DNA of 64,000 bases, taken from an uncultured archaeon (GTDB lineage Archaea; Asgardarchaeota; Heimdallarchaeia; Heimdallarchaeales; Heimdallarchaeaceae). Position 1 is the stretch's first letter. Each line of letters starts with the position of its first letter. This document shows, piece by piece, positions 56,844 through 56,954 of this stretch. Location: the NCBI GenBank assembly GCA_964534625.1, contig CAZHRF010000001.1, forward strand, positions 1 through 64,000. Direction: 5' to 3'. Both the position numbers and the translations under genes were made by a program. Below the pieces are notes generated by a model. It saw only the letters and a list, made by a program, of their open reading frames with translations, was not told the origin of the DNA and did no database searches.

Positions 56844-56954
56844 TTATTCGGGTTCTTCACTTTTTCCTATTTCATATGTGTGATAAAATAGTGTAAATAT
56901 AACTCCTAAAATCACCAATGCTATTACAATTGTTTTTATTACTGTAAAGTCCAT
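56844..56954 (-). CDS. 36-aa single-TM microprotein, OST4-like
   Basis: MDFTVIKTIVIALVILGVIFTLFYHTYEIGKSEEPE; TM ending in YH as in Ost4; BRE/TATA GAAAAGCTTATTAA ~30 bp upstream. Confidence 0.65.
   Translation of the reverse strand: MDFTVIKTIVIALVILGVIFTLFYHTYEIGKSEEPE

Follow-up and report, generated by a model that had tools for sequence, protein, structure and literature searches.

The window analyzed here is a stretch of 64,000 nucleotides from an archaeal genome of the family Heimdallarchaeaceae, an assignment taken from the names attached to the sequence matches. On its minus strand lies the gene of a microprotein, positioned between a convergent gene for a 964-amino-acid protein and a divergent Orc1/Cdc6 gene (Table 1). 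In the list of open reading frames (ORFs) and their translations, the gene is an ATG-to-stop ORF of 36 codons plus a stop, the coding part without the stop being 56847-56954. The 36-residue product begins with MDF, continues with a single hydrophobic stretch of about 20 residues (approximately residues 4 to 23), and ends with an LFYH motif (Y24-H25) and a polar, acidic tail. The initial annotation had described an ORF of this length with one transmembrane (TM) helix ending in FYH and a short polar tail, and the ORF was confirmed as such. It had also called the ORF unannotated, which holds in part: homologues are named "hypothetical protein," but the exact 36-residue product is already on record, with NCBI as the source.

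Table 1. Coordinates of the microprotein gene, its promoter, and associated features; positions refer to the window unless another genome is named.
Feature	Position	Strand	Remarks
STT3/AglB catalytic subunit	32116..34374	+	752 aa, WWDYG motif; Pfam STT3 E=4.7e-46; predicted binding partner
OST3/OST6-family membrane protein	41293..41718	+	141 aa; Pfam OST3_OST6 32.3 bits, cutoff 27, profile positions 183-278
RPA32-like winged-helix gene and RPA70-like multi-OB-fold gene (pair)	44334-47782	+	Pair also present at loci L019, L023, and L026
Gene of 964-aa secreted, C-terminally anchored protein	53948..56842	+	Convergent neighbor of microprotein gene
Microprotein coding sequence	56844..56954	-	MDF, one TM helix, LFYH at predicted cytoplasmic end, acidic tail
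BRE/TATA-type promoter element	56982..56996	-	GAAAAGCTTATTAAT (GAAAAGC + TTATTAAT); 15 nt, ends 27 nt before the ATG
Orc1/Cdc6 gene	57164..58417	+	Divergent neighbor of microprotein gene
Homologue in Ca. Heimdallarchaeum aukensis (closed genome G004, locus L027), protein P0005	3995-4099	-	Conserved start gives a 35-aa product

Genomic setting of the microprotein gene

The same genome encodes a eukaryote-type STT3, an Ost3/6-like protein, and ribophorin I, the last on contig C3 (77 bits). The microprotein gene lies outside any oligosaccharyltransferase (OST) operon and adjoins RPA genes rather than OST genes. In two closed Heimdallarchaeum genomes, approximately 4 kb separates it from STT3, and the gene order is STT3, RPA32-like, RPA70, and convergent microprotein gene. 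The window keeps this order, with STT3 at 32 kb, the RPA genes at 44 to 48 kb, and the microprotein gene at 57 kb, spread over 22 kb by inserted genes. In other genomes, the STT3 and microprotein genes are 36 to 85 kb apart or on separate contigs. The linkage between them is a loose synteny and is weak as support. The two RPA genes accompany the microprotein gene, and in Heimdallarchaeum they come immediately after STT3, on its strand.

The OST3/OST6-family protein of the window comprises the TM part of such proteins only and has no thioredoxin-like domain, resembling the shortened DC2/OSTC-type arrangement of eukaryotic OST-A. By comparison with the eukaryotic complex, it may be regarded as a candidate for the third place in a subcomplex of the STT3-Ost4-Ost3 type.

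The 964-residue neighbor has a signal-peptide-like N terminus, a C-terminal membrane anchor, a short basic tail, and no Pfam family. It carries 28 N-x-S/T sequons, compared with approximately 15 expected from its composition. The protein is probably located at the surface and heavily N-glycosylated, which would make it a substrate of OST rather than a partner. Its homologues (27 to 35% identity) are convergent with the microprotein gene in 15 related loci, and the pairing is lost in Heimdallarchaeum, where the neighbor is an RPA gene. A functional link of the microprotein to the 964-residue protein or to Orc1/Cdc6 was considered and rejected, given that these pairings are convergent or divergent and are lost in Heimdallarchaeum.

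Annotated homologues of the microprotein often have over-long N termini. The Ca. Heimdallarchaeum aukensis homologue UJG39928.1 (83 residues, "hypothetical protein") is annotated from a far-upstream start; this annotation is too long, because it runs through the conserved BRE/TATA promoter. Gene calls of 46 to 96 residues in relatives look over-extended in the same manner. The microprotein gene is often missed or given a false long N terminus, and the present analysis corrects such annotations.

Conservation of the gene and its promoter

A six-frame search recovered an intact counterpart of the microprotein in all 24 of the other genomes from the same family. With a broader profile built from more diverse members (A3), matches were obtained in all four families of the order, at one copy per genome (27 of 28, 1 of 1, 11 of 11, and 3 of 3 genomes for families f1 to f4, respectively). 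This profile also matched 8 of 11 genomes in a further family of the class (f6), again once per genome. A second further family of the class (f5) gave no match to A3 in 21 genomes, a result that does not equal absence of the gene, and the rest of the phylum gave borderline matches only.

Members of the family all share F20, L22, and H25, and M1, D2, F3, F23, Y24, and G30 are nearly invariant among them. Across the order and the class, the His is the sole invariant residue, the residue preceding it is Tyr and rarely Phe, and the tail stays acidic. The conservation of YH in relatives, which the initial annotation had proposed to examine, was borne out: the 19 diverse sequences and the 23 from the family all have the His, and the Tyr is present in at least 90% of them, being Phe otherwise.

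Upstream of the gene, the element GAAAAGCTTATTAAT is essentially invariant in 24 of 24 family loci, and its 27-nt spacing to the ATG is constant, while the flanking positions vary; the element is more than a chance occurrence. The spacing from BRE/TATA to ATG fixes the true start codon and fits a leaderless or very-short-leader mRNA, the transcription start being placed from the promoter spacing. The initial annotation had assigned the gene its own BRE/TATA element and a leaderless transcript; the former is present throughout the family, and the latter follows from the spacing.

Some properties of the ORF would be compatible with a chance reading frame in AT-rich intergenic DNA that is never translated. 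It is very short, the genome contains 2,626 small hydrophobic ORFs of 28 to 50 codons, and translation of the microprotein is predicted from sequence. Such an origin is nevertheless very improbable, as the frame, the ATG start, and a length of 34 to 38 residues are kept intact in a single copy across the order and beyond, with the promoter at a fixed distance. In addition, the ratio of the nonsynonymous to the synonymous proportion (pN/pS) is 0.21/0.65 = 0.32 across 276 pairs, with synonymous sites near saturation, and a decoy ORF put through the same conservation test was not conserved. The microprotein ORF is almost certainly a genuine gene under purifying selection.

Predicted packing of the microprotein on STT3

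The STT3 protein of the window has human STT3A as its best relative in the PDB (E=1.8e-89). A complex model of this STT3 (alignment A2) with the microprotein (alignment A1) received a score of 0.72, compared with 0.00 for the best of three controls; the partners swapped in as controls were unrelated natural proteins of 36 residues, which are not specified as membrane helices, and a generic hydrophobic helix may score too. Among solved complexes, 58 of 80 reached the mark used for such scores, as did 2 of 110 mismatched pairs. A pass may reflect the model's memory of solved OST complexes; it shows likeness to the Ost4 arrangement and is no proof of binding. Model runs agreed in at least 92% of contacts, with a pLDDT of at least 79 for the partner.

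The predicted interface on STT3 comprises residues 29-55 (TM1), 157-169, 438-451, and 470-493 (the last TM helix). Residues 157-169 form the cytoplasmic half of TM3, the helix that precedes the DNE loop, and residues 438-451 run from the end of TM12 into a basic cytoplasmic loop. By hydropathy, TM1 spans approximately residues 33-55, and the helix that immediately precedes the external domain spans approximately residues 470-490; these two helices correspond to residues 14-39 and 457-479 of STT3A. In the model, STT3 residue 44 contacts peptide residues 10 and 13, and STT3 residue 37 contacts peptide residues 17-24. The peptide is therefore antiparallel to TM1 in the model, so its predicted topology is N-out/C-in; the charges flanking the helix leave the topology undecided, the tail being acidic. 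Contacts are defined best for peptide residues 13-24, a stretch that holds the conserved F20, L22, F23, and Y24.

The predicted placement and topology are those published for Ost4. In yeast, "Ost4 is nestled between TMH1 and TMH13 of Stt3" (PMC7226087), and its residues 18-24 are critical; charged substitutions there destabilize Stt3-Ost4-Ost3 (PMC7226087). Ost4 is oriented Nout-Cin, and its conservation does not extend beyond residue 28 (PMC3687696). Complex modeling with STT3 had been suggested in the initial annotation as a check, and its outcome, a predicted docking at the Ost4 site on TM1/TM13, agrees with what was proposed there.

The same helix could instead belong to a conserved microprotein with another partner, in which case both its OST4 likeness and its docking would be artifacts. 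It could then serve another membrane complex as a small subunit or as a regulator, provide a His-ligated cofactor site, or be tied to the neighboring 964-residue surface protein. Profiles A1 and A3 searched against the PDB yielded no OST4 chain among the matches at E<=10, and the best matches were to other small membrane helices, namely AcrZ (E=0.79), the heme-ligand helix of SdhC (E=1.3), and small subunits of photosystem II (PSII), with NaK channel helices also appearing. We read these matches (E of 0.6 to 10) as hydrophobic noise at chance level, and the heme-ligand idea, prompted by the SdhC match, found no other support. Pfam scans of the peptide and the family members likewise returned generic membrane families (FeoB_associated, FixP_N, and others) at chance level. 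AcrZ on AcrB and the small PSII subunits are, like the microprotein, one-helix peptides of approximately 30 to 50 residues that lie in a groove of a large polytopic partner; they share no common motif or partner with it (E of 0.6 to 3), the predicted partner here being STT3. The position of the gene beside RPA rather than OST genes, its convergence with the 964-residue protein gene in 15 loci, and the use of unrelated natural proteins as docking controls all leave some room for a different partner. The convergent pairing is lost in Heimdallarchaeum, however, the docking score of 0.72 stands against 0.00 with STT3 replaced by an unrelated protein, and the contact residues coincide with the conserved ones. 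We thus regard a partner other than STT3 as unlikely.

The most likely reading, and a reasonably probable one, is that the microprotein is an Ost4-type OST subunit packed on STT3 TM1/TM13. As such, this single-pass protein would be the Heimdallarchaeaceae counterpart of eukaryotic OST4. It would probably be translated from a leaderless mRNA and would insert with its N terminus outside and its C terminus in the cytoplasm. Its helix, above all residues 13-25 with F20, L22, F23, Y24, and H25, would pack in an STT3 groove lined by TM1 and TM13, by TM3 in its cytoplasmic half, and by TM12 at its end. If it acts as Ost4 does, the microprotein may stabilize STT3 and help to recruit the Ost3/6-like subunit, as in OST subcomplex II. 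The acidic tail, which is conserved, may interact with the basic loop that joins TM12 to TM13 of STT3 on the cytoplasmic side.

Relationship to eukaryotic OST4

The microprotein and eukaryotic OST4/yeast Ost4p (PF10215; PDB entries 1RKL, 2LAT, 6EZN, 6C26, 6S7O, and 6S7T) are both proteins of 34 to 38 residues with one TM helix. Both have Tyr-His at the (for the microprotein, predicted) cytoplasmic end of that helix and critical or conserved residues in its cytoplasmic half. An N-out/C-in topology and a position of the helix on STT3 TM1/TM13, both published for Ost4, are predicted for the microprotein. Yeast Ost4 has 36 residues, and human OST4 has 37, with MISD and MITD starts, respectively, and with the motif at Y25-H26 in both (sequences from PDB entries 1RKL/6EZN for yeast and 2LAT/6S7O for human). 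The initial annotation had stated that the microprotein shares the length and YH position of these proteins; the lengths were confirmed, and the YH lies at 24-25 in the window copy, one residue earlier than in either. Many copies from sister families start with MI(S/D/N) and have the YH at exactly 25-26. Several features differ: the N terminus is MDF in the microprotein family and MI(S/T)D in OST4, no residue consistently takes the place of the conserved Gly15 of OST4, and the tail is strongly acidic (GKEEE type), compared with basic or KKxx type in animal OST4. The membrane also differs, being the endoplasmic reticulum (ER) for OST4 and presumably the cell membrane for the microprotein, which is known here from sequence and model.

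Profile methods gave no significant Pfam, HMMER, or hhalign match between the two groups. The Pfam Ost4 profile (PF10215; gathering score of 25 bits), a search recommended in the initial annotation, did not match the window protein or any of 23 family members at E<=10. A six-frame scan of the genome with PF10215 returned three start-less junk frames (E of approximately 0.35 to 0.5), none of them at the microprotein locus. Profile A1 searched against 1.84 billion representatives retrieved six clusters, all belonging to the microprotein family and none eukaryotic, and a search of the ESM Atlas returned neither the family nor an Ost4 cluster. Unfiltered one-to-one HMMER comparisons gave 2.0 bits with human OST4 and -0.6 bits with yeast Ost4. 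Alignment of A3 with yeast and human OST4 by hhalign gave a local P value of 0.0049, with columns 21-30 placed on columns 21-30, a global P value of 0.063, and a probability of at most 7%. Because a comparison of yeast with human OST4 itself yields just 16 bits, the lack of a profile match says little against homology.

Likeness to OST4 was further compared with that of natural decoys, which were small hydrophobic ORFs of the same genome, in sets of 234 and 2,626 (28 to 50 codons). With the family position-specific scoring matrix (PSSM) at register 0, yeast Ost4 scored +5.8 bits and human OST4 scored +5.6 bits, while most shifted registers fell to between -10 and -22 bits (human at +1, -1.5 bits); 7.7% of the natural decoys scored as high as the yeast and human proteins. 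By BLOSUM likeness to OST4, the window copy ranked 172nd among the 2,626 small hydrophobic ORFs. Compared with yeast and human OST4, sister-family copies (L089, L093, L092, and L088) scored above every one, or almost every one, of the 234 decoys. The sister-family MI(S/D) copies with Y25-H26 are much closer to OST4 than the window copy is. Membership in OST4 is not established by sequence alone.

The genome was also examined for a better Ost4 candidate. The top decoy was a 39-residue ORF on contig C51 (9079-9198, minus strand; equivalent to 3001-3120, minus strand, of locus L102) that strikingly resembles OST4 in its D4, G15, H26, and basic tail, more so than the microprotein does. It was rejected as a chance occurrence, being out of frame inside a 525-residue ORF and not conserved in relatives. 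Thus, OST4 likeness of such short helices arises easily by chance, and this ORF is a useful negative control for motif-based microprotein calls in AT-rich genomes.

An independent origin would make the microprotein an analogue rather than a homologue of OST4, one that binds the STT3 TM1/TM13 groove and does the job of Ost4. This reading draws on the fact that the docking is supported by the model, yet no sequence method links the protein significantly to OST4, and on the ease with which motif likeness in 36-residue helices arises by chance. It must also accommodate the agreement with OST4 in length, YH register, the MI(S/D) start of sister-family copies, predicted topology, and the positions of critical residues, as well as the presence of a eukaryote-type STT3 in a host lineage that is the archaeal group closest to eukaryotes. 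Furthermore, such proteins have been called homologues by Eme et al. (PMC10307638), and we consider an independent origin improbable. Common descent of the microprotein with OST4 is plausible. The proposal of the initial annotation that the gene encodes an archaeal OST4 homologue is thus sustained in its functional part, by the conserved His and Tyr/Phe, the length, the predicted topology, and the predicted docking, but the sequence statistics fall short of significance.

The initial annotation had further held OST4 to be unreported among Asgard OST subunits, which is incorrect. Eme et al. (2023, Nature 618:992, PMC10307638) wrote, [quoted passage not shown] and placed Asgard Ost4 and Ost5 alongside STT3, Ost1, and Ost3. 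No Ost4 sequences or accessions were found in the text of that paper and the supplements searched, and the Heimdallarchaeaceae family may be the one meant there. A 2024 study of the MK-D1 translocon listed OST1, OST3/6, and STT3 only. The microprotein fits the Asgard Ost4 picture already reported and leaves the current picture unchanged. A residue-level definition of the protein, with its true start, promoter, contact face, and predicted STT3 site, makes the 2023 Asgard Ost4 claim experimentally approachable.

A stronger version of the Ost4-type reading is credible, if slightly short of probable: the family may be the direct archaeal ancestor of OST4, with Heimdallarchaeia already assembling a cell-membrane STT3-Ost4-Ost3 "subcomplex II" in which the conserved acidic tail clamps the basic TM12-TM13 loop of STT3. 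The multisubunit OST is a hallmark of the eukaryotic ER, and which of its accessory subunits predate eukaryotes in Asgard archaea bears on the origin of the secretory pathway. If the ancestor reading is true, the defined sequences would allow a minimal pre-eukaryotic multisubunit OST to be reconstituted, and replacement of yeast Ost4 by the archaeal peptide would become testable.

Three other sequences came to light in these searches. At locus L028 (genome G036, contig C335; 1349-1462, minus strand), the N-terminal membrane helix of a large protein ends in ...SLYH... and matches the microprotein at E=0.011, probably by chance; the protein exceeds 500 residues and has CCG/Fe-S-like motifs downstream. 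The genome search also gave a TTG-start ORF on contig C14 as another Ost4 candidate. Finally, locus L099 from another Asgard class (genome G134, contig C39; 2977-3117, plus strand) holds a 46-residue ORF in which LLYHFYS is followed by a lysine-rich tail. This borderline match (E=0.012) was left out of the profile, and its tail is nearer to that of animal OST4.
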